Below, in pieces: positions 9,416 through 21,506 of a DNA stretch of 53,951 bases (positions are counted from its first letter, which is position 1; each line of letters opens with the position of its first letter). This DNA is from Promethearchaeota archaeon Loki_b32 (lineage in GTDB: Archaea > Asgardarchaeota > Lokiarchaeia > Sigyniarchaeales > SOKP01), in NCBI GenBank assembly GCA_005223125.1, contig NJBH01000026.1:1-53951 (forward strand), in the 5' to 3' direction. A program made the translations under genes and the position numbers. The notes under the pieces were generated by a model, which made no database searches, was not told the origin of the DNA, and saw only the letters and a program-made list of their open reading frames with translations.

Positions 9416-12295
9416 ATGTCATCATCAGAGAAGAAAAAAGAAATCTATTATTATAACCAGCCAATTGAACACTTAATAAATACTTTCAATTCTGATATTG
9501 ATCATGGAATAACTTCTTCTGAATTAAATGAGAGACATCTAAAATATGGATATAATGAATTACCTAAAGTTAAAAAATCTATTTGGAAGATTTATTTAGC
9601 ACCTATTTTTAATTTTTTAATTGTAATTTTATTGGTTACAGGGATTGTCATAATTATTTTAGGCTCAATTGGGGATACAATAATTACTTTTACTGTTGTG
9701 ATTATTAATTCAGTTACAGCTATAGTCCAACAATTCCGTGCTCAAAAAGCTCTAGAATCTCTAAGAGAAATATCTGCCTTAAAAACGACAGTTTTACGAG
9801 ATGGGATACAACTTGAAATTAGTACCAGAGAATTAATTCCGGGGGATATAGTACTATTAGAACAGGGAGATAAAATTCCTGCGGATGGAAGATTAATAGA
9901 ACAAATGAATTTAACAATTGATGAAGCTCCATTAACAGGTGAAAGTGAACCAGTAGAAAAAACCAGTAATCCCCTAGAAGAAACAGAAATTTCCCTCCAA
10001 AAACAGTCAAATATGGTATTTATGGGAACTTATGTCCAGACCGGTAGAGCAAAAGAATTAGTAACAGGAATAGGAGAAAATACTGAGATTGGCAAAATTT
10101 CTCAAACATTAAATGAAATGGGTAGTATTGAAGATATTCCTTTAACGAGAAAATTAAACAGATTAGGGTATATCTTAGGGACGATTGTTATCATTAATTT
10201 GATTATTTTAATAATTTATAAACTTTCATGGCTACAGATTCAAGAAAATTTCATTCAAAGTCAAATTATTGATGCTTTAGTAGATTCTATATTGAGAGCT
10301 ATGAATATTGTCCCCATTAATTTACCATTATTATCTACTCTTGTTCTAATCACTGGAGTTCTAAGGATGGCGCAAACTGGAGTCATTATCAAAAACTTAT
10401 CTGCTATAGAATCTCTTGGACGAGTTTCTGTAATTTGTTCAGATAAAACTGGTACTATTACTAAAAATGAGATGACTGTTGAAAAATTTTGGATAAACGA
10501 AGAAGAATATGAAGTCACTGGATCTGGATATGAGGCAGAGGGAGAAATTGTAAAAAATGGAACTCCTATTGATTTAAGCAATAATGCTACATTCCAAAAG
10601 TTTATTGATTCTATGGTCGTCAATAATAATGCGAAACTTGTATTTGAGGATGTTAAAGTAAGATTAAGAGATTTAAGAGAAAAAGCAGTCAGAAGAGCAC
10701 TAGGATCGCCTACAGAAGCGGCTTTATTAGTGTTAGCAGAAAAAGCTGGTTATTATACTTACGATCTACAAAAAAAGTATGAAATTATAACTGAATTTTC
10801 TTTTAGTTCTGAATTTAAAAGGATGACATCAATTTTTAAGCCTACTACGGGAAATCCATATTCTCTTGTTTTTTCAAAAGGTGCTCCTGAAAGAATTTTA
10901 AGTATTTCTTCTCAAATAGAAATAAATGGTACCCTTAAATCTCTTGATAATGATTATAAAAAACAAATTTCTAACAAAATAAATGAACAAGCCAATAAAG
11001 GTTTTAGAATTTTAGCAATTGCTTATAGAATAATAAATTCCGTCAATGAACCTAAAAGAGAAGAAACTGAAAAAGATTTGGTATTTTTAGGATTTGTTTC
11101 AATAATGGATCCGCCTCGTATTGGCGTTAAAGAATCTGTTGAAGATTGTAAAAAAGGTGGTATTAAAGTAGTTATGATTACTGGTGATCATCCCGCAACA
11201 GCTCAAACAATAGCTTCTCAAATGGGCATTTTTTCTGAAGAAAATTTGGTTGCAACTGGAGATCAAGTTAAAAATTTAGCTCTATTAGACTTTAATAAAA
11301 CCACAGTTTTTGCCCGTGTAGAACCAACTGATAAAGAGATTATTGTTGAGAATTACCAAAAACAAAATTTTATTTGTGCTATGACAGGTGATGGTATAAA
11401 TGACGCTCCTGCATTAAAACTTGCGAATGCTGGGATCGCGATGGGAATAACAGGAACTGACCTTGCTAAAGAAACTTCAGATATGGTAATAACAGATGAT
11501 AATTTTGTATCTATTAAAAAAGGTGTTAAAGTAGGCAGGGGAATTTTTGCAAAAATAAGAACTATTATCTTTTTCTTTATTTGTACGAATATAATGGAAG
11601 GTGTCATCTTTTTTACCTTTGAAATTTTACAACCATATACGGGATTTGAATTGTTTGCGTCAAATTGGCAACATATCTATATCTTTGGAATATTGCATTC
11701 TCTTCCATCCTTAGCATTAGTTGTGGATAATCATCCCAAAGATATTATGAATGAAACTCCGAGAAATGAGGAAGAACTATTGAATAAAAATTTATGGATA
11801 TTCCTACTAATACAAGCTTTTCTTGGAGGATTAGGTTTAGTCTTGGCATTACAGTTAACCACAGAAGGTATAATTCCACTGAATCCTTGGAATACAAATA
11901 GCTCTTTAAGTTATATTCCCACTGGAGCAACTGAACCCGATATGATATATATGAAAGCAAGAACAATGTTTATTACAGTTATCTATCTCTTTGAATCATT
12001 TTTTATCTGGACATTTAGACGACCAAATAAATCTCTATATAAGAGTTTAAAGGAAGAAATAAGTTATACACTATTAGTCATATGCTTATTCACGTTAGGA
12101 TTGCATATCTTCTTTATTTGTTTTTCCTATAGTGCAAATTATTACATAAATGATGTATTTGGTTTAAATCTACAAATAAACTTTTTGTTTCTAAGTGGGA
12201 CTGATTGGTTAATTTGTATTATGCTTGCCCTTCCAGGAATTGTCGGTATAGAGTTATTTAAGTACTTTGCTAGAGAGAAGAATATTCATTTTTAA
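9416..12295 (+). CDS. P-type ATPase, P2-like scaffold with non-canonical TM4 motif PINLP
   Basis: TGES, CSDKTGT, KGAPE, DPPR, MITGD, TGDGINDAPAL; about 10 TM. Confidence 0.95.
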   Translation: MSSSEKKKEIYYYNQPIEHLINTFNSDIDHGITSSELNERHLKYGYNELPKVKKSIWKIYLAPIFNFLIVILLVTGIVIIILGSIGDTIITFTVVIINSVTAIVQQFRAQKALESLREISALKTTVLRDGIQLEISTRELIPGDIVLLEQGDKIPADGRLIEQMNLTIDEAPLTGESEPVEKTSNPLEETEISLQKQSNMVFMGTYVQTGRAKELVTGIGENTEIGKISQTLNEMGSIEDIPLTRKLNRLGYILGTIVIINLIILIIYKLSWLQIQENFIQSQIIDALVDSILRAMNIVPINLPLLSTLVLITGVLRMAQTGVIIKNLSAIESLGRVSVICSDKTGTITKNEMTVEKFWINEEEYEVTGSGYEAEGEIVKNGTPIDLSNNATFQKFIDSMVVNNNAKLVFEDVKVRLRDLREKAVRRALGSPTEAALLVLAEKAGYYTYDLQKKYEIITEFSFSSEFKRMTSIFKPTTGNPYSLVFSKGAPERILSISSQIEINGTLKSLDNDYKKQISNKINEQANKGFRILAIAYRIINSVNEPKREETEKDLVFLGFVSIMDPPRIGVKESVEDCKKGGIKVVMITGDHPATAQTIASQMGIFSEENLVATGDQVKNLALLDFNKTTVFARVEPTDKEIIVENYQKQNFICAMTGDGINDAPALKLANAGIAMGITGTDLAKETSDMVITDDNFVSIKKGVKVGRGIFAKIRTIIFFFICTNIMEGVIFFTFEILQPYTGFELFASNWQHIYIFGILHSLPSLALVVDNHPKDIMNETPRNEEELLNKNLWIFLLIQAFLGGLGLVLALQLTTEGIIPLNPWNTNSSLSYIPTGATEPDMIYMKARTMFITVIYLFESFFIWTFRRPNKSLYKSLKEEISYTLLVICLFTLGLHIFFICFSYSANYYINDVFGLNLQINFLFLSGTDWLICIMLALPGIVGIELFKYFAREKNIHF

Positions 12296-12408
12296 TCTTC
12301 TCATTTTAAGATCACAATTTAAATTAAATGATTATTATAGGTTATTTATTATATTGAAATTAGAATTCAATTTTCATTAATTATTTTTAAAAACTTTGGT
12401 AGCCCCGT

Positions 12409-15291
12409 ATGGAATCTACAGAAGAATATTTTTATAATATTGAATTAGAGCAAATCTATAAAAAATTTCAGACAAATCCTGATAATGGATTAACTCTAAA
12501 AGAAGTTAATAAAAGATTAGAAAAATTTGGCTATAATGAAATTCCAAAAGTATCTAAAGGTTTCATTAAAATCTATTTAGCTCCATTATTTAACTGGTTA
12601 ATTGTAATTTATTTAATTGGATCTTTAATTTTATTTTTAGCATGGTTATTTGGTGGAGAAGGTGATGTGACTTTTATTGCAATAACCTTAGGAATTGTGC
12701 TTCTAAATTGTTTAGTTGCAATCATTCAACAATATCGAGCTACAAAAAAACTTAATGCTTTACGTGAATTAACGGCTCCTACATCGACAATTATTAGAGA
12801 TGATCAAAAACAAGATATTCCTACCAAAGAAATTGTAGTTGGCGATTTATTAGTTTTAAATCAAGGAGATAAAATCCCTGCTGATGCTAGAATAATTGAA
12901 TCATATAATTTAGTGATAAATGAGGCTTCTTTAACAGGAGAATCCGAGCCTGTAAGAAAGGCTGAGCTAGGAAAACTCTTAAAGAAAAGAGATATCTCCA
13001 TTGGAGAGCGTAATAATATGGTATTTTATGGAACCTATATCTCTACTGGAAATGGTAAATCAATTGTTGTCAAAACAGGTGGTGATACTGAAATTGGAAA
13101 AATTTCTCATGGATTAGAAGAAGCAGGAACCAGTGAAATTCCTATTAGAAAAAAAATGAATAATTTTGGAAAGTGGTTAGGACTAATTATTTTTGCTTTT
13201 TGGTTTATAATATTAATGATTCTTTGGGCAGTAAGAGGAGAAGCTGATATTGTAGAAAGTATGAATTCCGCGCTTGATCTAATGCCAATCAATTTGCCAC
13301 TGCTCACAACTATTGTTTTGATTACGGGTGTAGTAGCTTTGGCACATCATGGTGTTATAATAAGAAATCTGGCATCTGTTGATAGTTTAGGTAGAGTAAG
13401 CATAGTATGTTCAGATAAAACGGGTACATTAACTAAGAACCAGATGAGCGTTCAACATGTTTGGACAAACGGATCAATATTTCGAGTTACTGGCAGCGGA
13501 TATGCTCCAGAAGGGGAAATAATTTTAATGGATGACCCAAAGAACCCCAATTATGTAAAACATATTGACGATTATCCTTATCTTAAATTATTATTAACTG
13601 CTGGATTTTTAAATAACAACTCAGCATTAATTAAAAATGAAATTGAGATTTCTGGGAAGATTATTCCCAATTGGAATGTCGTAGGTTCTCCAACAGAGGG
13701 TGCTTTAGCAGTATTATTTCAAAAAGGCATGGGAGATTATCTTCTTGATGATTATGAATCTATTACTGAATATCCTTTTGATTCTTCATTAAAAAGAATG
13801 ACAAAACTTTATAAAAGAGATCATGATTACTATTCCTTTACAAAAGGCGCAAGTGAAATTTTAATCCCACATTGTACAAAAATCTTATATAATGATGTAG
13901 AAATTAATTTTAGTGAAGAGATAAAAAATAAGGTAATGGAAATTGTAAATCTATATGCAAATCAGGGTTATCGAATATTAAGTTTATGTTATAAAGTAAT
14001 GGATACAATTCCACCAGAGGGTGATAAAGGAAGAGAAGTTAGTGAATCAAACATGATTTTTATAGGATTTGTAACAATTTTAGACCCTCCTAGAGAAGGA
14101 GTTAAAGAATCTGTAGAACAATGTCATGAAGCAGGTGTAGAGATTGTAATGATTACCGGTGATTCTCCTTCAACAGCAAGAGCAATTGCATCACAAATTG
14201 GTATTGTATCAGATGAGAGTGATATAGCAATTGAAGGAAAAGATATTAAAGATTATGAAGCATACGATGAGTTTAAAAAAATTAAAGTTTTTGCTCGTGT
14301 AGAACCAACTGATAAAGAAGATATAGTAGAACAATATCAGGAACAGAAAAAAGTTGTCGCTATGACTGGTGATGGAGTAAATGATGCTTTAGCATTAAAT
14401 ATGGCAGATGCAGGGGTCGCTATGGGAATAGCAGGAACAGATGTAGCTAAGGAAGCTTCTGATATGGTTATCTCAGATGATTCATTTAACTCAATCGTGA
14501 TTGGTATCCATCATGGAAGAGGAATTTTTGCAAGGATCCGTGTGGTAGTATTCTTTTATATTTGCATCAATATATTTGAAGGATTAGTTCAATTTATATT
14601 AGCAATAATTTTAGATTTACCATATTTCTTAGACGATGCATTTCACTGGCAATGGATATTTCTTTCAATTACCTTACATGTATTTCCAGGTCTAATCTTG
14701 ACTTTTGATTCTACTTCTGATGATGTCATGAAAGAAAAACCAAGAGATTCAGAAGAAATACTTTCTCGAAATATTATGTATCTTCTGTTCATATTTGGAA
14801 TTTTGCTGGCATTAGTCATGGTACTGGTATATTTCGTAACTATGAGTGGAAATTATCCTGTTTTTTTTGAGAATTGGAACTTTGGTGGATTAAATGAAGC
14901 ATACCTCTATTCACCAGAAAATGCTGAATTAAATCCATTTGGGGTAGGCTTAACTGAAGCAAAAGCTCTTACTATGTTAATGGTAACGTTATTCTTTTGT
15001 GAATCATTTCTTATATTTCAAATTAGACGGCCTAATAAGTCTTTAATTAGAAGTCTTATAGAAGATAGTAATAAACGGATGTATCTTATAATAGGCTTTT
15101 TATTTGCGGTTTTCCTTATGTTAATGTATATCCCAGGAGTTCAAATTACATTAGCAAATTGGGGAGTTAATTTTATGTTCATGCTTCTAACCGGTCTTGA
15201 TTGGTTAGTATGTTTCTTGATTTCCTTAATTTGTATTGTTTCTTTTGAGCTTGTAAAATTTTTAGCGCGTAAGAAAAATATATCATTCTAA
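12409..15291 (+). CDS. P-type ATPase paralog, P2-like scaffold with TM4 PINLP
   Basis: TGES, CSDKTGT, KGASE, DPPR, MITGD, TGDGVND; colinear with the upstream paralog. Confidence 0.95.
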   Translation: MESTEEYFYNIELEQIYKKFQTNPDNGLTLKEVNKRLEKFGYNEIPKVSKGFIKIYLAPLFNWLIVIYLIGSLILFLAWLFGGEGDVTFIAITLGIVLLNCLVAIIQQYRATKKLNALRELTAPTSTIIRDDQKQDIPTKEIVVGDLLVLNQGDKIPADARIIESYNLVINEASLTGESEPVRKAELGKLLKKRDISIGERNNMVFYGTYISTGNGKSIVVKTGGDTEIGKISHGLEEAGTSEIPIRKKMNNFGKWLGLIIFAFWFIILMILWAVRGEADIVESMNSALDLMPINLPLLTTIVLITGVVALAHHGVIIRNLASVDSLGRVSIVCSDKTGTLTKNQMSVQHVWTNGSIFRVTGSGYAPEGEIILMDDPKNPNYVKHIDDYPYLKLLLTAGFLNNNSALIKNEIEISGKIIPNWNVVGSPTEGALAVLFQKGMGDYLLDDYESITEYPFDSSLKRMTKLYKRDHDYYSFTKGASEILIPHCTKILYNDVEINFSEEIKNKVMEIVNLYANQGYRILSLCYKVMDTIPPEGDKGREVSESNMIFIGFVTILDPPREGVKESVEQCHEAGVEIVMITGDSPSTARAIASQIGIVSDESDIAIEGKDIKDYEAYDEFKKIKVFARVEPTDKEDIVEQYQEQKKVVAMTGDGVNDALALNMADAGVAMGIAGTDVAKEASDMVISDDSFNSIVIGIHHGRGIFARIRVVVFFYICINIFEGLVQFILAIILDLPYFLDDAFHWQWIFLSITLHVFPGLILTFDSTSDDVMKEKPRDSEEILSRNIMYLLFIFGILLALVMVLVYFVTMSGNYPVFFENWNFGGLNEAYLYSPENAELNPFGVGLTEAKALTMLMVTLFFCESFLIFQIRRPNKSLIRSLIEDSNKRMYLIIGFLFAVFLMLMYIPGVQITLANWGVNFMFMLLTGLDWLVCFLISLICIVSFELVKFLARKKNISF

Positions 15292-15371: not shown

Positions 15372-15914
15372 ATGTTAAAGGGAAAGAGAATTAATTTAGC
15401 TCCAATTAAGAGAGAATATATAGAATCATTTCTCAAATGGTTTAATGATCCAGAAATTACTCAATATTTGGTAAGGTATCGTCCTATGACCAAAATGGGG
15501 GAAGAGGATTGGATTGAAAATCTTAAAAATCAAGAGAATTCTATTCATTTCGCTATCGTCATTTTAGCTGAAGATGGTTCAGAGAAACTTATTGGTAATT
15601 GTGGAATACATAATGTTGATTGGAAAAATAGAGTAGGAGAGTTGGGGATTGTAATTGGAGAAAAAGATTATCAAAACAGAGGATATGGGACTGAAGTGAT
15701 AGAATTGCTATTAGAATACGGGTTCGACACAGTAAATTTAAACAGAATTGAATTATACGTATATGATTATAATATAAGAGCATTAAGATCTTATCAAAAA
15801 GCAGGCTTCACGGAAGAAGGAAGAAAACGGCAATTTATGTGGAATAAGGGAAAATATTATGATGCAATCATAATGGGTATTTTAGCAGAAGAATGGAGTG
15901 AAAAAAAAAAATAA
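15372..15914 (+). CDS. GNAT N-acetyltransferase, RimJ/RimL type
   Basis: ELGIVIGEKDYQNRGYGTE, LNRIELYVYDYNIRALRSYQKAGFTEEG. Confidence 0.92.
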   Translation: MLKGKRINLAPIKREYIESFLKWFNDPEITQYLVRYRPMTKMGEEDWIENLKNQENSIHFAIVILAEDGSEKLIGNCGIHNVDWKNRVGELGIVIGEKDYQNRGYGTEVIELLLEYGFDTVNLNRIELYVYDYNIRALRSYQKAGFTEEGRKRQFMWNKGKYYDAIIMGILAEEWSEKKK

Positions 15915-15925
15915 GAAACTAATAT

Positions 15926-16972
15926 TTATTTTTCTAATTCTTTAAAGTAAGGGATAATTTCATTACGAAAGATTTCATAAACCTGATTAATATCAGGACC
16001 TCGGTTCATAAGAATCATTGCGGTCGCGCCTGCTTCTTTAAACTTTTCTATACTTGCAATGACATCATCAGTAGAACCTAAACAATTAGTGTCTTGAAGG
16101 ATAGTTTCAGGAAGGTTATCTATGCATGATAATTGCTTAGTTGCATCTTTTACTTGCATATCAAAATTATGAATTGTATAATCCGTTGGAAGACATAAAT
16201 CAGGATATATTTGATTAGTTTTTGTTGGATTGAGCACATAGGAAACTCTGAAGAATTCACAGCGTTTAACAGCATTTTCCGGAGTTTCATTATCTATAGC
16301 CACAAAACAATTATATGTATAATCAATTTCTTCTGGATTTCGCCCTACTTTTTTAGCGGCTTCAACTATTTCTTTTTTATTCTCTTTAAATGATCTAGCT
16401 GACTCTACAAAAGGATACCATCCATCTCCTAATTCACCAGTCATTTGACGAGTTTTGGGACTGTTTGCTGCAATATATATAGGAGGAGTATTTTGAATAG
16501 GTTTAACTTGGATATAAGCTCGGTGAATATTACCCCAAAAATCACTTTTTCTACTTACTTTACGTTTTGTCCAAAATTCTCTTAATAACTCAATGTATTC
16601 TCTTAATTTCGATATAGATTTATCACGATTCAATCCGTACATATCAACATTCATTTTTTCTCCTGCACCGAGACCTATCATAGCTCTTCCATTTGAAATT
16701 TGGTCGAGAGTAGCAACTTTTTGAGCCATTAGTGCAGGATGAAACCTATGAGGATCAGAAACACCAGTACATAATTTAGCCTTATTAGTGATCATTGCGA
16801 TTGAGGTGAGAAACATAAAAGCATCAAAACAAGTACCGGGCCCTGGAGGTAGCATTACTGTATGATCTGCATAAAACACATATTCAAAACCACATTGTTC
16901 GGCTTTTTTAGCTCCTTCATACATATAATCAAGCCGAGGGGTGGGAACTGGGATTGAAAATCCAAACTTCAT
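15926..16972 (-). CDS. LLM-class (luciferase-like, probably F420-dependent) oxidoreductase
   Basis: ADH, GVSDPHRFHPALMAQKVATLDQISNGR..GLGAG, PPIYIAA, DGW. Confidence 0.9.
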   Translation of the reverse strand: MKFGFSIPVPTPRLDYMYEGAKKAEQCGFEYVFYADHTVMLPPGPGTCFDAFMFLTSIAMITNKAKLCTGVSDPHRFHPALMAQKVATLDQISNGRAMIGLGAGEKMNVDMYGLNRDKSISKLREYIELLREFWTKRKVSRKSDFWGNIHRAYIQVKPIQNTPPIYIAANSPKTRQMTGELGDGWYPFVESARSFKENKKEIVEAAKKVGRNPEEIDYTYNCFVAIDNETPENAVKRCEFFRVSYVLNPTKTNQIYPDLCLPTDYTIHNFDMQVKDATKQLSCIDNLPETILQDTNCLGSTDDVIASIEKFKEAGATAMILMNRGPDINQVYEIFRNEIIPYFKELEK

Positions 16973-17092
16973 AATAATTAAAATTGTTTGAATCTTAAAA
17001 ACTTCCATGTTCTCCTAACATTTGGGCTAGATTTCAAACTAAAAGGATAAGTTATAAATTATTATTAGATAATATATTTTTAGAATCAATTT

Positions 17093-18232
17093 TTGGAAAG
17101 TGATATTATGGATATTAATGATATAAAAATCGGTACTGAAGGAAGTTTCATTGGCCCCTTTGAAAAAGGAATTGCTAATGTAAAAAGGATAGAAGAGAAT
17201 GGGTATGATTCAGTATGGTTTGCGGATCATCTGATGGGGTGGACACCGGAAAGTATATGGACCCCTGATATTATTAGAGCTGCTGAATTTCAAGATAGCC
17301 CACATTTATTTCATGAAGTATATTCTACTATAGCAGTTGCTGCTTGGAATACCAATAAAATTAAATTAGGTACAAGCGTAACTGAAACTTTTCGAAGAAA
17401 TCCTGCTGTTTTAGCTCAAACATTATTAACACAAGATCATATCTCAAAAGGAAGAGTAATATTAGGTATAGGTGCGGGGGAAGGTGAAAATGTAATACCT
17501 TATGGAATTAAATGGGAGAGTCCTGTAAGTAGGTTAGAGGAATCCATTCAAATAATTAAGCTACTATGGAAGAGCGATAAAAAAGTAAATTTTGAAGGAA
17601 AATTTTGGAATTTGAAAAACGCTGTTCTTTCTCTAAAACCATTCAAGAAAGGAAAATACCCACCGATTTGGATTGCCGCACATGGTCCCAAAATGCTTGA
17701 TTTAACCGGAAGATTAGGGGATGGTTGGATACCTGCATATTCTGATCCTGAATCATATAAATATAGACTAGATCATATCAAAAATTCAGCAAAAAAAGCA
17801 AATAGGGATCCAAATGAAATTACTCCTGCTCTTTTTAGCTTTCTTGTTATTGATGAAGAACATAATATCTGTGATGATATGCTTGAAAATCCCGTAATTA
17901 AAAATCAACTATTAACTATGCCTCCTTCAATGTATAAAAAATATGGAGCAATTCATCCTTTTGGAGAGGATTTTTATGGATTACTTGAATATATACCAAC
18001 AGAATATGATAGAAAAACAGTATTAGAAGCAATAGATAAAATCCCCGCAAAAATGTGTGATGATAATACTTTACATGGGACCCCTGATGAAATTATCAGT
18101 AAAATTGAAGAATATGCTAAAGTGGGTCTAAAACATATTGTTCTTTATAATACAACTTATTTAGCGGATATTACCAAGATAAAAAGTTCATTTGGCTTAT
18201 TGAAAAAAGTATTAGAATATTTTCATGGATAA
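17093..18232 (+). CDS. LLM-class (probably F420-dependent) oxidoreductase, divergent from its paralog
   Basis: GYDSVWFADH, RRNPAVLAQ...DHISKGRVILGIGAGE, PPIWIAAHGPKM, GDGW. Confidence 0.9.
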   Translation: MESDIMDINDIKIGTEGSFIGPFEKGIANVKRIEENGYDSVWFADHLMGWTPESIWTPDIIRAAEFQDSPHLFHEVYSTIAVAAWNTNKIKLGTSVTETFRRNPAVLAQTLLTQDHISKGRVILGIGAGEGENVIPYGIKWESPVSRLEESIQIIKLLWKSDKKVNFEGKFWNLKNAVLSLKPFKKGKYPPIWIAAHGPKMLDLTGRLGDGWIPAYSDPESYKYRLDHIKNSAKKANRDPNEITPALFSFLVIDEEHNICDDMLENPVIKNQLLTMPPSMYKKYGAIHPFGEDFYGLLEYIPTEYDRKTVLEAIDKIPAKMCDDNTLHGTPDEIISKIEEYAKVGLKHIVLYNTTYLADITKIKSSFGLLKKVLEYFHG

Positions 18233-18258: not shown

Positions 18259-19029
18259 TTATTTAAATCCTTGACAAAAAGAATCAACATTTTTGGGTAA
18301 TACGCTATGATTATAACCTCCTTCTAATAAAGCATATCGTCTTCCCTTGCACAATTTTTCCGAATACTCTTTCATTAATCTGCCTAATTCAAAATAATCT
18401 TCAGGGTATAAAAGATGACCCCAATCTTCAATACCTTGGTCAAATCCCGCACTGGCGACAAAGATATCAATATCATTTAATTTTTGCATATATGATTCAA
18501 CTTCTTTTAAATAATGAGAGGGACTACTTGAATCAGGATTAAGAATCTTTACTCTGAAGTTATCACTTCTATTTTTTAAGATATTGACATTTCCATCACC
18601 AAAGTGAAGATCGAAATCTAAGATAAATGCTGAGTTAATCTTCTTATCCGAAAATAGCTTAAGTAAACTAATACTAATATTATTAAAATAGCAGAAACCC
18701 CAGCAAGAATCAGCAGAAGCATGGTGTCCGGGAGGTCTGATAACAGCGAAAGTTGGATTACCCTGATAACCTTCTTCAGCTGCTAAAATTGCTCCTCCCG
18801 CTGCTAAGGAGGCTAATTCATATAGTAATTTATCCCTTCTAATAGATTGGAGGTGTCTTGATGTATGAGCCCTTAAAATATCTTCTTCTTTAGCAGATCC
18901 AGGCGTAATTATCTCATATTCATTATTTTTTGAAATCTTACTCATTATTCCTTCTAAACGACCTGTAGACGCAGCTGGATCCCAAGCATATTCTGAATTA
19001 AAATATTTTTCATGAAAAATGATTTTCAT
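18259..19029 (-). CDS. Zn-dependent deacetylase, histone deacetylase/AcuC family
   Basis: RPPGHHA, GFCYFNN, DFDLHFGDG, SAGFD, LEGGY. Confidence 0.93.
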   Translation of the reverse strand: MKIIFHEKYFNSEYAWDPAASTGRLEGIMSKISKNNEYEIITPGSAKEEDILRAHTSRHLQSIRRDKLLYELASLAAGGAILAAEEGYQGNPTFAVIRPPGHHASADSCWGFCYFNNISISLLKLFSDKKINSAFILDFDLHFGDGNVNILKNRSDNFRVKILNPDSSSPSHYLKEVESYMQKLNDIDIFVASAGFDQGIEDWGHLLYPEDYFELGRLMKEYSEKLCKGRRYALLEGGYNHSVLPKNVDSFCQGFK

Positions 19030-19205: not shown

Positions 19206-20159
19206 CTATAATCTTTTACTTAATTTCTCAATCATATCTTTTGTCATGGAAGCAAGATCATAACTGGGATCCCAATTCCATTCTTCACGAGCAAGCGAAT
19301 CATCTATCGATTTTGGCCAAGAATCTGCAATTTCTTGTCGAAAATCTGGTTCATAATCTATTTGAAATTCTGGAATATGTTTCTTAATTTCAGCAGCAAT
19401 TTCTCCGGCAGAGAAACTTATGCCTGTAACATTATAAACACGACGCTTTAATTTTAAATTATCTGCTTCTAAAAGATCAATCATGCATTTATTACAATCT
19501 GGCATATACATCATAGGTAAATAAGTATCTTCTTTAAGAAAGCAGGTATATTGTTTTTTCTTGATAGCTTCATAAAAGATCTCAACAGCATAATCGGTAG
19601 TCCCTCCCCCTGGAAGCGTTTCACTACTTATTATCCCAGGAAGTCTCATTGAACGAGTATCAAGCCCGTATTTCTTATAATAATATTCTGCTAAAAGTTC
19701 TCCAGCTACTTTAGTGATGCCATACATCGTTGTTGGCTCCAATATAGTAGTATTTGGAGTATTATCTCTTGGAGTAGTAGGACCAAAAGCAGCTATAGAA
19801 CTTGGCCATATTACATTTTTAATCTTGTAACTTCTACTAGTTTCAAGGACATTTATTAACCCATTTATATTTATATTCCATGCAGTCTGAGGCATTTTTT
19901 CTCCAGTAGCTGAGAGAATTGAAGCCATATGAAAGATTGTATCTATTTCATACTCATACAAAACCTTTTTGAGGGCATCGATTTCTAATGCATCCAAATA
20001 AATAAAAGGGCCACCTTCTTTTAGTATTTTGGGGGGAGGTGTACGACGTCCAGTGGCTATTACATTATCATTTCCATATTTTTCTCTAAGTGCAGGGACC
20101 AATTCAGTTCCTATTTGTCCACATGAACCAATTACAAGGATTCTTCTCATTTTGATCAT
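19206..20159 (-). CDS. tdh: L-threonine 3-dehydrogenase (SDR/epimerase type)
   Basis: GSCGQIG, PSSIAAFGP, YGITK, PGGGTTDYAV, LPMMYMPD; divergent from kbl. Confidence 0.88.
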   Translation of the reverse strand: MIKMRRILVIGSCGQIGTELVPALREKYGNDNVIATGRRTPPPKILKEGGPFIYLDALEIDALKKVLYEYEIDTIFHMASILSATGEKMPQTAWNININGLINVLETSRSYKIKNVIWPSSIAAFGPTTPRDNTPNTTILEPTTMYGITKVAGELLAEYYYKKYGLDTRSMRLPGIISSETLPGGGTTDYAVEIFYEAIKKKQYTCFLKEDTYLPMMYMPDCNKCMIDLLEADNLKLKRRVYNVTGISFSAGEIAAEIKKHIPEFQIDYEPDFRQEIADSWPKSIDDSLAREEWNWDPSYDLASMTKDMIEKLSKRL

Positions 20160-20318: not shown

Positions 20319-21506
20319 ATGAAAAGAGATCCTGTTGCTTTTCTCAAAGAGGAAATGACCGAATTGAGAAATAACAATCTTGAATGGATTATAAGATATC
20401 TTGAAGAAGGCTCAAAACCACATTGTGTTGTAGATGGTAAGGAAGTTTTAATGTTGAACACAAATAACTACCTGGGATTATCGACTCATCCAAAAATAAT
20501 TCAAGCCGCTATTGATGCTACACAAAAATATGGTGCTGGTGCTGGAGCAGTTCCAGTTATCGCTGGTTCCTTTGATTTAACTAAGCAATTTGAAAAAAAA
20601 TTTGCTGAATTTAAAGAAGTAGAAGCATCAATTCTTTGTCAAACTGGATATGCTGTTAATTCGGGCTTAATTCCTATGTTAGTTGGAAAACCTGATATTG
20701 TTGTCTCAGATGAATTAAATCATGGGTCTATTATTGATGGAGTTAGATTATCTGGGGCTAAAAGGATAATTTATAAACATCGCGATGTTGGAGATTTAGA
20801 AAGACAATTAAAGGAAGCGGAAAAAGAAGGTGCTAGAAGAATGTGTATTATTACTGATGGTGTTTTCAGTATGGATGGCGATATGGCACCACTAGATAAG
20901 ATTGCTAAAGTTGCTGAAGATTTTGGAGCCATGATTTTTGTTGATGATTGTCATGGAGAAGGTGTTTTAGGTAATGGTAGAGGTATTGTTGCCCACTTTA
21001 ATCTGCAGGGAAAGGTTCATGTAGAAGGGGGGTCAATGAGTAAAGGGTTTGGAGTATTTGGAGGAACTGTTGCGGGTTCAAAAGATTTAATTGAGTTTTG
21101 TGCAAATAAAAGTAGGACTTATCTGCTTAGCACTGCTCATCCTCCAGGTGTTGTGGCAGCTAATAAAGCATCTATTGAAGTTGTTGAAAGTGAACCAGAA
21201 CATGTAAAAAAAGTATGGGATCATACTAATTACTTTAAAAAAGAAGTTCAAAGTATGGGTTATAATACAGGAAATTCAGAAACTCCGATTATTCCTTTAA
21301 TAGTTGGTGATCCAGGCAAAGCCCAAGAATTAGCTAGAATTCTTTTTGAAGAAGAGAACATATATGGTACACCTATTGTATTTCCTATGGTTGCTAGGGA
21401 ACTTTCTAGAATTAGAGTTCAGATGAATGCGCTATTAACGAACGATGATTTAAATACTGCTTTGGGTTCAATCGAAAAAGTAGGAAAAAAACTAGATATA
21501 ATATAA
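20319..21506 (+). CDS. kbl: Glycine C-acetyltransferase (2-amino-3-ketobutyrate CoA ligase), PLP alpha-oxoamine synthase family
   Basis: NNYLGL, SDELNHGSIIDG, TDGVFSMDGD, DDCHG, SMSKG; adjacent to tdh. Confidence 0.85.
   Translation: MKRDPVAFLKEEMTELRNNNLEWIIRYLEEGSKPHCVVDGKEVLMLNTNNYLGLSTHPKIIQAAIDATQKYGAGAGAVPVIAGSFDLTKQFEKKFAEFKEVEASILCQTGYAVNSGLIPMLVGKPDIVVSDELNHGSIIDGVRLSGAKRIIYKHRDVGDLERQLKEAEKEGARRMCIITDGVFSMDGDMAPLDKIAKVAEDFGAMIFVDDCHGEGVLGNGRGIVAHFNLQGKVHVEGGSMSKGFGVFGGTVAGSKDLIEFCANKSRTYLLSTAHPPGVVAANKASIEVVESEPEHVKKVWDHTNYFKKEVQSMGYNTGNSETPIIPLIVGDPGKAQELARILFEEENIYGTPIVFPMVARELSRIRVQMNALLTNDDLNTALGSIEKVGKKLDII

Follow-up and report, generated by a model that had tools for sequence, protein, structure and literature searches.

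Two tandem P2-type ATPases of Promethearchaeota archaeon Loki_b32 belong to an Asgard PINL/His clade with an apparently rebuilt transport site

P-type ATPases are divided into classes that are defined by the chemistry of their transport sites. P6 is the only family to have been added to P1–P5 since the 1998 classification, and more prokaryotic families are expected; the review that states this also regards the P4 pumps as unique to eukaryotes and of unknown origin, documents His as an internal counter-ion in a P1B-4 pump, and makes no mention of the clade described here (Palmgren 2023, PMC10654040). The pumps of this clade, which carry PINL in the fourth transmembrane helix (TM4) and His in TM6, are annotated everywhere as Ca2+ pumps, and a survey of Asgard transporters filed them as putative Ca2+-ATPases (TC 3.A.3.2.21), in support of Ca2+ signalling (PMC7997004). 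Two of them, pump 1 (P0001) and pump 2 (P0002), are encoded side by side in the stretch of DNA analysed in this work (the window), the 53,951 nucleotides of contig NJBH01000026.1 of Promethearchaeota archaeon Loki_b32. Judging from their sequences, we hold with moderate confidence that both are working, SERCA-like pumps of the P2 type in which a rebuilt single site moves one small cation, and they are probably neither the Ca2+ pumps of their annotation nor kin of the eukaryotic lipid flippases.

Both open reading frames (ORFs) run without stops or frameshifts in the same orientation, and their products are 43% identical across the full length (Table 1). Five Pfam domains (Cation_ATPase_N, E1-E2_ATPase, Cation_ATPase, Hydrolase and Cation_ATPase_C) were found in each product, all above their cut-offs. 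A preliminary description, made from the letters of the DNA, had reported the P2-type cytosolic motifs TGES, DKTGT, DPPR and GDGxND, and these were located in both pumps, where KGAxE is intact as well. It had also read PINLP in TM4, GILHSLP and ITLHVFP in TM6, and a retained N..E in TM5 and Glu in TM8. Translation returned both PINLP motifs at exactly the positions where it had read them, and HMMER alignments to Listeria LMCA1 and SERCA2, by which the register was fixed, placed the TM6 His at the position of SERCA D800, N725/E728 at those of N768/E771 and E860 at that of E908.

Along the rest of the transport path of pump 1, P300, I301 and N302 fall on SERCA P308, E309 and G310, F757 on N796 and L760 on T799, while pump 2 has Ile, Ser and His at the E309, N796 and D800 positions. 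The ligands typical of P2A pumps, namely the PEGL Glu (E309) and the TM6 residues N796 and D800, were looked for across the clade and failed to appear, the E309 position being never Glu and the D800 position always His. When 30 clade members were compared with 93 canonical pumps, few clade-specific positions emerged, most of them along the ion path: P63 (SERCA Q56), Q106 (E109), N302 (G310), L305/L306, T313 and H761 (D800). At site II and adjacent positions the side chains have gained volume, by 31 (E309I), 54 (G310N) and 67 cubic angstroms (A313L), and further gains of 55, 42 and 31 cubic angstroms come from N796Y/F, D800H and G801S/T. The acidic residue of the cytoplasmic entry funnel is neutralised (SERCA E109 to Gln, with Q56 to Pro in addition), and the TM8 Glu is found in 29 of the 30 clade members as against 37 of the 93 canonical prokaryotic pumps, 52 of which have Gln. 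In an AlphaFold2 model of P0001 (predicted local distance difference test 82.9, predicted template modelling score 0.74), TM4 is unwound or broken at residues 297–302 and TM6 breaks at 761–762, as in ion-binding P-type pumps.

From this pattern we infer that site II has been filled in the clade and that a pocket resembling site I is retained. Site II would have been abolished and filled through the change of the TM4 Glu to Ile, Phe or Val, of the TM4 Gly to Asn, of the TM6 Asn to Tyr or Phe and of neighbouring Ala or Val to Leu, and site I would have been kept and tightened around the TM5 Asn and Glu, the TM8 Glu, an invariant His that takes the place of the bridging Asp in TM6, and the new TM4 Asn nearby. 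What would be left is one small pocket made of two carboxylates, a His and one or two amides. In LMCA1, SPCA and PMCA it is site I that is disabled and site II that remains in use; because site II would here be the filled one and site I the one kept, the clade appears to be their mirror image.

The signature is not a peculiarity of the window. Its elements, P-[IFVLW]-N-[LIF]-P (P-[IFV]-N-L-P among the close homologues), N-x-x-E, the His of TM6 and the Glu of TM8, were found in every one of the 122 close homologues (67–97% identity), and about 30 further full-length clusters with the same pattern were recovered at 35–50% identity from a search of 1.84 billion cluster representatives, the next matches being canonical PEGL/NLVTDGLP pumps. 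All 30 of the full-length distant representatives carry it, with P300, E728 and H761 invariant and N302, N725 and E860 conserved in at least 90%, and its recurrence is far beyond chance. The preliminary description had argued for selection rather than decay, with which the integrity of both paralogues and the persistence of the signature across a deep clade agree. One representative (P0129) reads DKMGT at the phosphorylation motif instead of DKTGT, which could be a variant or a sequencing error.

Two maximum-likelihood trees were built with IQ-TREE (LG+G4, a short search, Shimodaira–Hasegawa-like approximate likelihood ratio test [SH-aLRT] support only), the first from 77 rows and rooted on an archaeal P3A pump, the second from 62 rows, 24 of which were extracted from Asgard genomes. 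Each tree unites the His-bearing sequences in a single clade (SH-aLRT 100) on a long stem (0.36 and 0.41), placed among prokaryotic PEGL/Asp pumps whose own backbone is poorly resolved. Orthologues of P0001 in the window's own family and in Helarchaeota join it in subclade A; P0002 and its own-family orthologues belong to subclade B, near forms from eight or more other Asgard families. Since the two pumps each group with different Asgard forms, their duplication must be old. The tandem order is kept in every own-family genome in which both copies were located, sometimes with a gap of about 1 kb, and is not kept elsewhere; in most Asgard families the clade members are single or unlinked. An obligate heteromer of the tandem products is for that reason an unneeded proposal, and a difference in specificity or in regulation between the two copies is more probable than such a complex.

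All named members of the clade are Asgard archaea, coming from metagenome-assembled genomes labelled Loki-, Hel-, Hermod-, Thor-, Hod- and Odinarchaeota, from Ca. Harpocratesius and from the cultured Promethearchaeum syntrophicum (P0303); in the ten divergent clusters the named members are from Helarchaeota only. Matches of clade strength (E ≤1e-175) occur in 12 of the 27 Asgard families sampled, and the motif was present wherever these were checked (20 loci, 25 genes), while 21 weaker Asgard matches, from other families or second copies, are all canonical PEGL or PEAL pumps. Nothing was found at E ≤1e-165 in 301 genomes from each of two other archaeal phyla. The clade is thus apparently restricted to Asgard archaea, as far as organism names, these two phyla and the search of all-protein representatives reach, with Thermoproteota and bacterial genomes outside the sample. 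From the ESM Atlas came the query protein's own Promethearchaeota-rich cluster and, besides it, generic P-type clusters only. A pattern search of genome contigs with the clade alignment picked up the generic GDGxND/DKTGT motifs, gave ordinary bacterial P2A pumps among the matches listed and is uninformative as to range.

Within much of the Asgard phylum the clade is present, often in two to five copies. Many Asgard genomes carry a canonical PEGL pump besides the PINL/His type. The P-type pumps of the Loki_b32 genome are the two described here and two P1B-like ones (contig C21; frames of 967 and 717 aa), and no canonical PEGL/Asp Ca2+-ATPase was found in that genome. No description of the PINL/His clade turned up in the full-text literature, a coverage to which subscription journals do not belong, and it seems to be a large branch of the P2 class that has apparently gone undescribed. 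Five representatives of about 1630–1710 aa (P0160, P0172, P0212, P0218 and P0230) match P0001 only in their C-terminal half (about 740–1580), in several stretches; these are double-length proteins in which a long N-terminal part precedes a fused PEGL-type pump.

As to class, both pumps are recognised by the P-type superfamily model TIGR01494 (290 and 294 bits, cut-off 62.3), and their general architecture is that of P2, with the five Pfam domains and with top matches in PDB sequence searches and in Foldseek that are all P2. They stay below the curated families, scoring 472 and 429 bits on the SERCA equivalog TIGR01116 (cut-off 703), 476 and 479 bits on the PMR1 equivalog TIGR01522 (798), 349 and 339 bits on the P3A model TIGR01647 (615), 243 and 246 bits on the P5 model TIGR01657 (618), and 118 and 103 bits on the P4 model TIGR01652 (431). 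Canonical control pumps gave 700–823 bits on the P2A models. On the P4 and P5 models, three canonical PEGL controls scored 75–112 and 248–270 bits, and other members of the clade 86–126 and 236–254 bits. The clade has therefore drifted about 300 bits from the P2A models with no shift toward P4 or P5. The P5 motif PP(E/D/A/V)xP is absent from TM4, where the pumps read V/M-P-I-N-L-P with a single Pro before the Ile, and the P6 (CtpE-like) pattern is equally missing, PEGL being absent and the TM6 residue being His. Short PEGL-type pumps of 773–856 aa from methanogen and DPANN genomes (L092, L093 and L096) scored 464–489 bits on the P3A model (cut-off 615); they have a Ca2+-type TM4 and group between curated families.

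Structural comparison points the same way. The first 50 Foldseek matches to the P0001 model are all P2 pumps, and a scan of all representatives (VIA) ranked PfATP4, SPCA1, LMCA1 and SERCA2 first (Z 30–33, 26–31% identity), followed by MgtA and AHA2 (Z about 28.7, 23%) and then by P4 pumps (Z 25–27, 17–19%), with differences in Z that are modest and partly dependent on conformation. Searched alone, the TM5–10 half matched P2A, P2B and P2C structures only (E up to 1). The trees were built from prokaryotic sequences, without eukaryotic P2, P4 or P5 pumps, for which the model scores and structural ranks stand in.

Because all catalytic motifs are intact, the ordinary Post-Albers cycle (E1–E1P–E2P–E2) is to be expected of both proteins, and both would export a single small cation for each ATP spent. 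In this cycle the invariant His might either bind the ion directly or serve as an internal counter-ion. Chemically, a His between two buried Glu suits Ca2+, Na+ or K+ poorly, but it would do well in a proton relay, with a borderline divalent metal or as a counter-ion. Among the substrates that such a pocket may suit, H+ is our tentative first candidate; a divalent transition metal, such as Mn2+, Fe2+, Zn2+, Co2+ or Ni2+, is possible but a little more doubtful, and another small cation is unlikely. Single-site geometry, identity of the ion and direction of transport are deductions and are put forward here as proposals. Several points weigh against this proposal of a single-site pump for a small cation. 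The geometry of the putative pocket comes from alignment and side-chain volumes and not from model coordinates, and the combination of a neutralised entry funnel and a hydrophobic gate residue would accommodate an amphipathic substrate too. Two P1B-type metal pumps are already present in the genome, and archaea have A-type ATPases for H+, so that neither a metal nor H+ fills an obvious physiological gap. Genomic context, too, offers no clue of the sort that a metal regulator or an operon for ion homeostasis would give.

The alternative that survives best, rather unlikely as we judge it, is that the cargo is a lipid or organic cation, moved in the manner of P4 flippases or P5B polyamine pumps, by convergence or deep kinship, the hydrophobic TM4 residue serving as a gate and the Glu/Glu/His/Asn pocket binding an amine head group or a polyamine. 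This would be in keeping with the Ile, Phe or Val at the E309 position and the loss of the acidic entry funnel. It would also fit the restriction of the family to Asgard archaea, which of all prokaryotes stand nearest to eukaryotes, given that P4 pumps are held to be eukaryote-only and of unknown origin (PMC10654040), and a deep link would lie beyond the reach of trees that contain no eukaryotic P4 or P5 sequences. However, the P4 and P5 models score these pumps no better than ordinary Ca2+ pumps, and the P4 cut-off is not attained in any of 101 Asgard genomes, where scores stay at the same low level as in control bacteria. The pocket positions have become bulkier, not smaller, the two buried carboxylates are strictly conserved, the TM5–10 half finds P2 structures only, and P4 pumps come after P2 and P3 in the structural ranking. 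The TM4 of an archaeal P3A proton pump (L091; 920 bits, cut-off 615) reads IPVAQP, and a hydrophobic residue after the TM4 Pro is hence no hallmark of flippases. The A-domain motif of P4 pumps is DGET. The preliminary description had itself cautioned that these pumps have TGES instead, which holds for both of them and for all 122 homologues, and that no CDC50-like gene was recognised nearby; none was found beside the pumps, where 21 loci share no partner gene or other neighbour outside close kin, CDC50 homologues not having been searched genome-wide and P4B pumps needing none. Its proposal of a distinct subfamily with a rewritten site and probably a substrate other than Ca2+ stands, its suggestion of a lipid or organic cation is weakened by the bulkier pocket, and its idea of kinship with, or a step toward, P4 finds no support in the P4-model scores, the structural ranks or the TM5–10 matches. 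If a lipid or organic cation were nevertheless the substrate, this would bear directly on the origin of eukaryotic flippases.

Unlikely, too, and slightly more so, is that the database annotation is right and the pumps export Ca2+ (or Ca2+ and Mn2+) through a modified single site. The best family and structure matches are indeed PMR1/SPCA, SERCA and LMCA1, database annotations and the Asgard transporter survey (PMC7997004) agree on a Ca2+-ATPase, and some route of Ca2+ export would be needed in a genome such as that of Loki_b32, which has no canonical PEGL pump. Yet the scores are far under both equivalog cut-offs and below those of canonical pumps, and E309, N796, T799 and D800 are all replaced. 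To our knowledge, all well-studied single-site Ca2+ pumps (SPCA, PMCA and LMCA1) use site II, the very one that is destroyed here, and the coexistence of canonical PEGL pumps in many Asgard genomes argues for different jobs.

A bolder variant, which we consider quite improbable, would make the clade an Asgard invention on the P2 scaffold that moves a bulky amphipathic or organic cation, for instance a polyamine or the amine-bearing head group of an archaeal lipid, and is a prokaryotic analogue or distant precursor of P4 and P5; if true, it would offer a handle on the rise of membrane asymmetry and remodelling before eukaryotes. Least probable is that the proteins are non-transporters, either ATPases with a sensing or scaffolding role or pumps in decay, for although the cargo site is unlike any characterised one and roles independent of transport have been considered for certain P4B pumps (PMC10654040), catalytic motifs and polar membrane-core residues are kept across a clade diverged to 35% identity, and two paralogues have been retained since an old duplication, free of stops and frameshifts.

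Table 1. Positions of the pump genes, their motifs and the neighbouring genes in the window
Feature	Position	Strand	Description	Basis
Pump 1 (P0001)	9416..12295	+	959 aa; complete P2-type P-type ATPase; PINL/His clade, subclade A	ORF, translation, Pfam, tree, AlphaFold2 model
Pump 2 (P0002)	12409..15291	+	960 aa; paralogue, subclade B of PINL/His clade	ORF, Pfam, alignment, tree
Spacer between pump genes	12296..12408	+	113 bp, AT-rich	sequence read
TGES	pump 1 9935-9946; pump 2 12934-12945	+		translation
DKTGT, pump 1	10442..10456	+	phosphorylation motif (D343)	translation
DKTGT, pump 2	13414..13428	+	phosphorylation motif (D336)	translation
DPPR	pump 1 11108-11119; pump 2 14083-14094	+		translation
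TGDG[IV]ND	pump 1 11384-11404; pump 2 14365-14385	+		translation
TM4 PINLP, pump 1	10313..10327	+	P300-I301-N302-L303-P304, in place of PEGLP; unwound part of TM4	translation, alignment, model
TM4 PINLP, pump 2	13285..13299	+	P293-P297	translation
TM5 TNIME, pump 1	11585..11599	+	N725, E728 = SERCA N768, E771; site-I ligands retained	alignment
TM5 INIFE, pump 2	14566..14580	+	N721, E724	pump 1/2 alignment, motif coordinates
TM6 GILHSLP, pump 1	11687..11707	+	H761 at SERCA D800; F757 at N796	alignment, model
TM6 ITLHVFP, pump 2	14668..14688	+	H757	pump 1/2 alignment, motif coordinates
TM8 LFESFF, pump 1	11987..12004	+	E860 = SERCA E908	alignment
TM8 FCESFL, pump 2	14995..15012	+	E865	pump 1/2 alignment, motif coordinates
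GNAT acetyltransferase gene	15372-15914	+	downstream of the pumps	
Luciferase-like monooxygenase gene	15926-17008	-	divergent from the next	
Luciferase-like monooxygenase gene	17093-18232	+	divergent from the preceding	
Histone-deacetylase-like ORF	18259-19029	-	256 aa	
NAD-dependent epimerase/dehydratase gene	19206-20159	-	few kb from the pumps	
Neighbour of the epimerase/dehydratase gene	20319-21506	+	divergent from it	

The 21 loci in which the surroundings of the pumps were compared represent at least ten Asgard families. It is possible that the spacer between the two genes holds a promoter of its own for pump 2; a scan for bacterial-type promoters and terminators, which is unsuited to archaea, gave as many matches as expected from shuffled sequence. 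The GNAT acetyltransferase gene and the two luciferase-like monooxygenase genes that follow downstream are not kept beside the pumps in other families. Farther along, the histone-deacetylase domain is matched in two stretches of the 256-aa ORF that cover part of the 298-position profile, and this ORF may be a shortened or rearranged deacetylase. Three further loci (L104, L116 and L117), one from a second genome of the window's family and the others from two genomes of an Asgard family far removed from it, also have the epimerase/dehydratase gene and its divergent neighbour near the pumps, a weak recurrence that may be due to chance.

With a deep and well-populated clade whose pocket would be of site I only and centred on a His, the P2 pumps would gain a new specificity class once the real substrate is known, and models of ion homeostasis in the closest archaeal relatives of eukaryotes would have to be corrected. 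For the PINL/His pumps, the argument for eukaryote-like Ca2+ signalling drawn from the transporter survey (PMC7997004) is probably unsound.

Set beside the described systems, the clade is nearest to the P2A pumps (LMCA1, PDB 6zhf/9euq; SPCA1/PMR1; SERCA), with which it shares domain order, ten transmembrane helices, TGES, DKTGT, DPPR and GDGxND, the N-x-x-E of TM5 and the Glu of TM8, at 28–31% identity and with the best matches by hidden Markov model, sequence and structure. It departs from them in having P-I-N-L for PEGL, Phe or Tyr, a hydrophobic residue and His for the TM6 residues N796, T799 and D800, and Gln for the entry-funnel Glu, and in lying about 300 bits under the family cut-offs. 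Like the P3A pumps (AHA2, Pma1 and an archaeal homologue), it has a hydrophobic side chain following the TM4 Pro, a lone protonatable residue at the position of D800 and no need of a beta subunit, whereas these pumps combine a TM6 Asp with a TM5 Arg and the clade a TM6 His with a TM5 Asn and Glu; AHA2, at 23% identity, also comes below the P2 pumps in the structure search. The P4 pumps (ATP8A1, Drs2 and Neo1) also have Ile where TM4 would carry Glu (PISL, compared with PINL here) and likewise lack an acidic TM4 residue, but they have DGET and are 17–19% identical, while the clade has TGES, a conserved buried Glu/Glu/His and no CDC50-like neighbour that could be found. Finally, the mycobacterial P6 pump CtpE is likewise a prokaryotic P2-like pump in which the TM6 Asp has been replaced (PMC10654040); it keeps PEGL, however, and has Ile in TM6 (PMC10654040), whereas the clade has lost PEGL and carries His.

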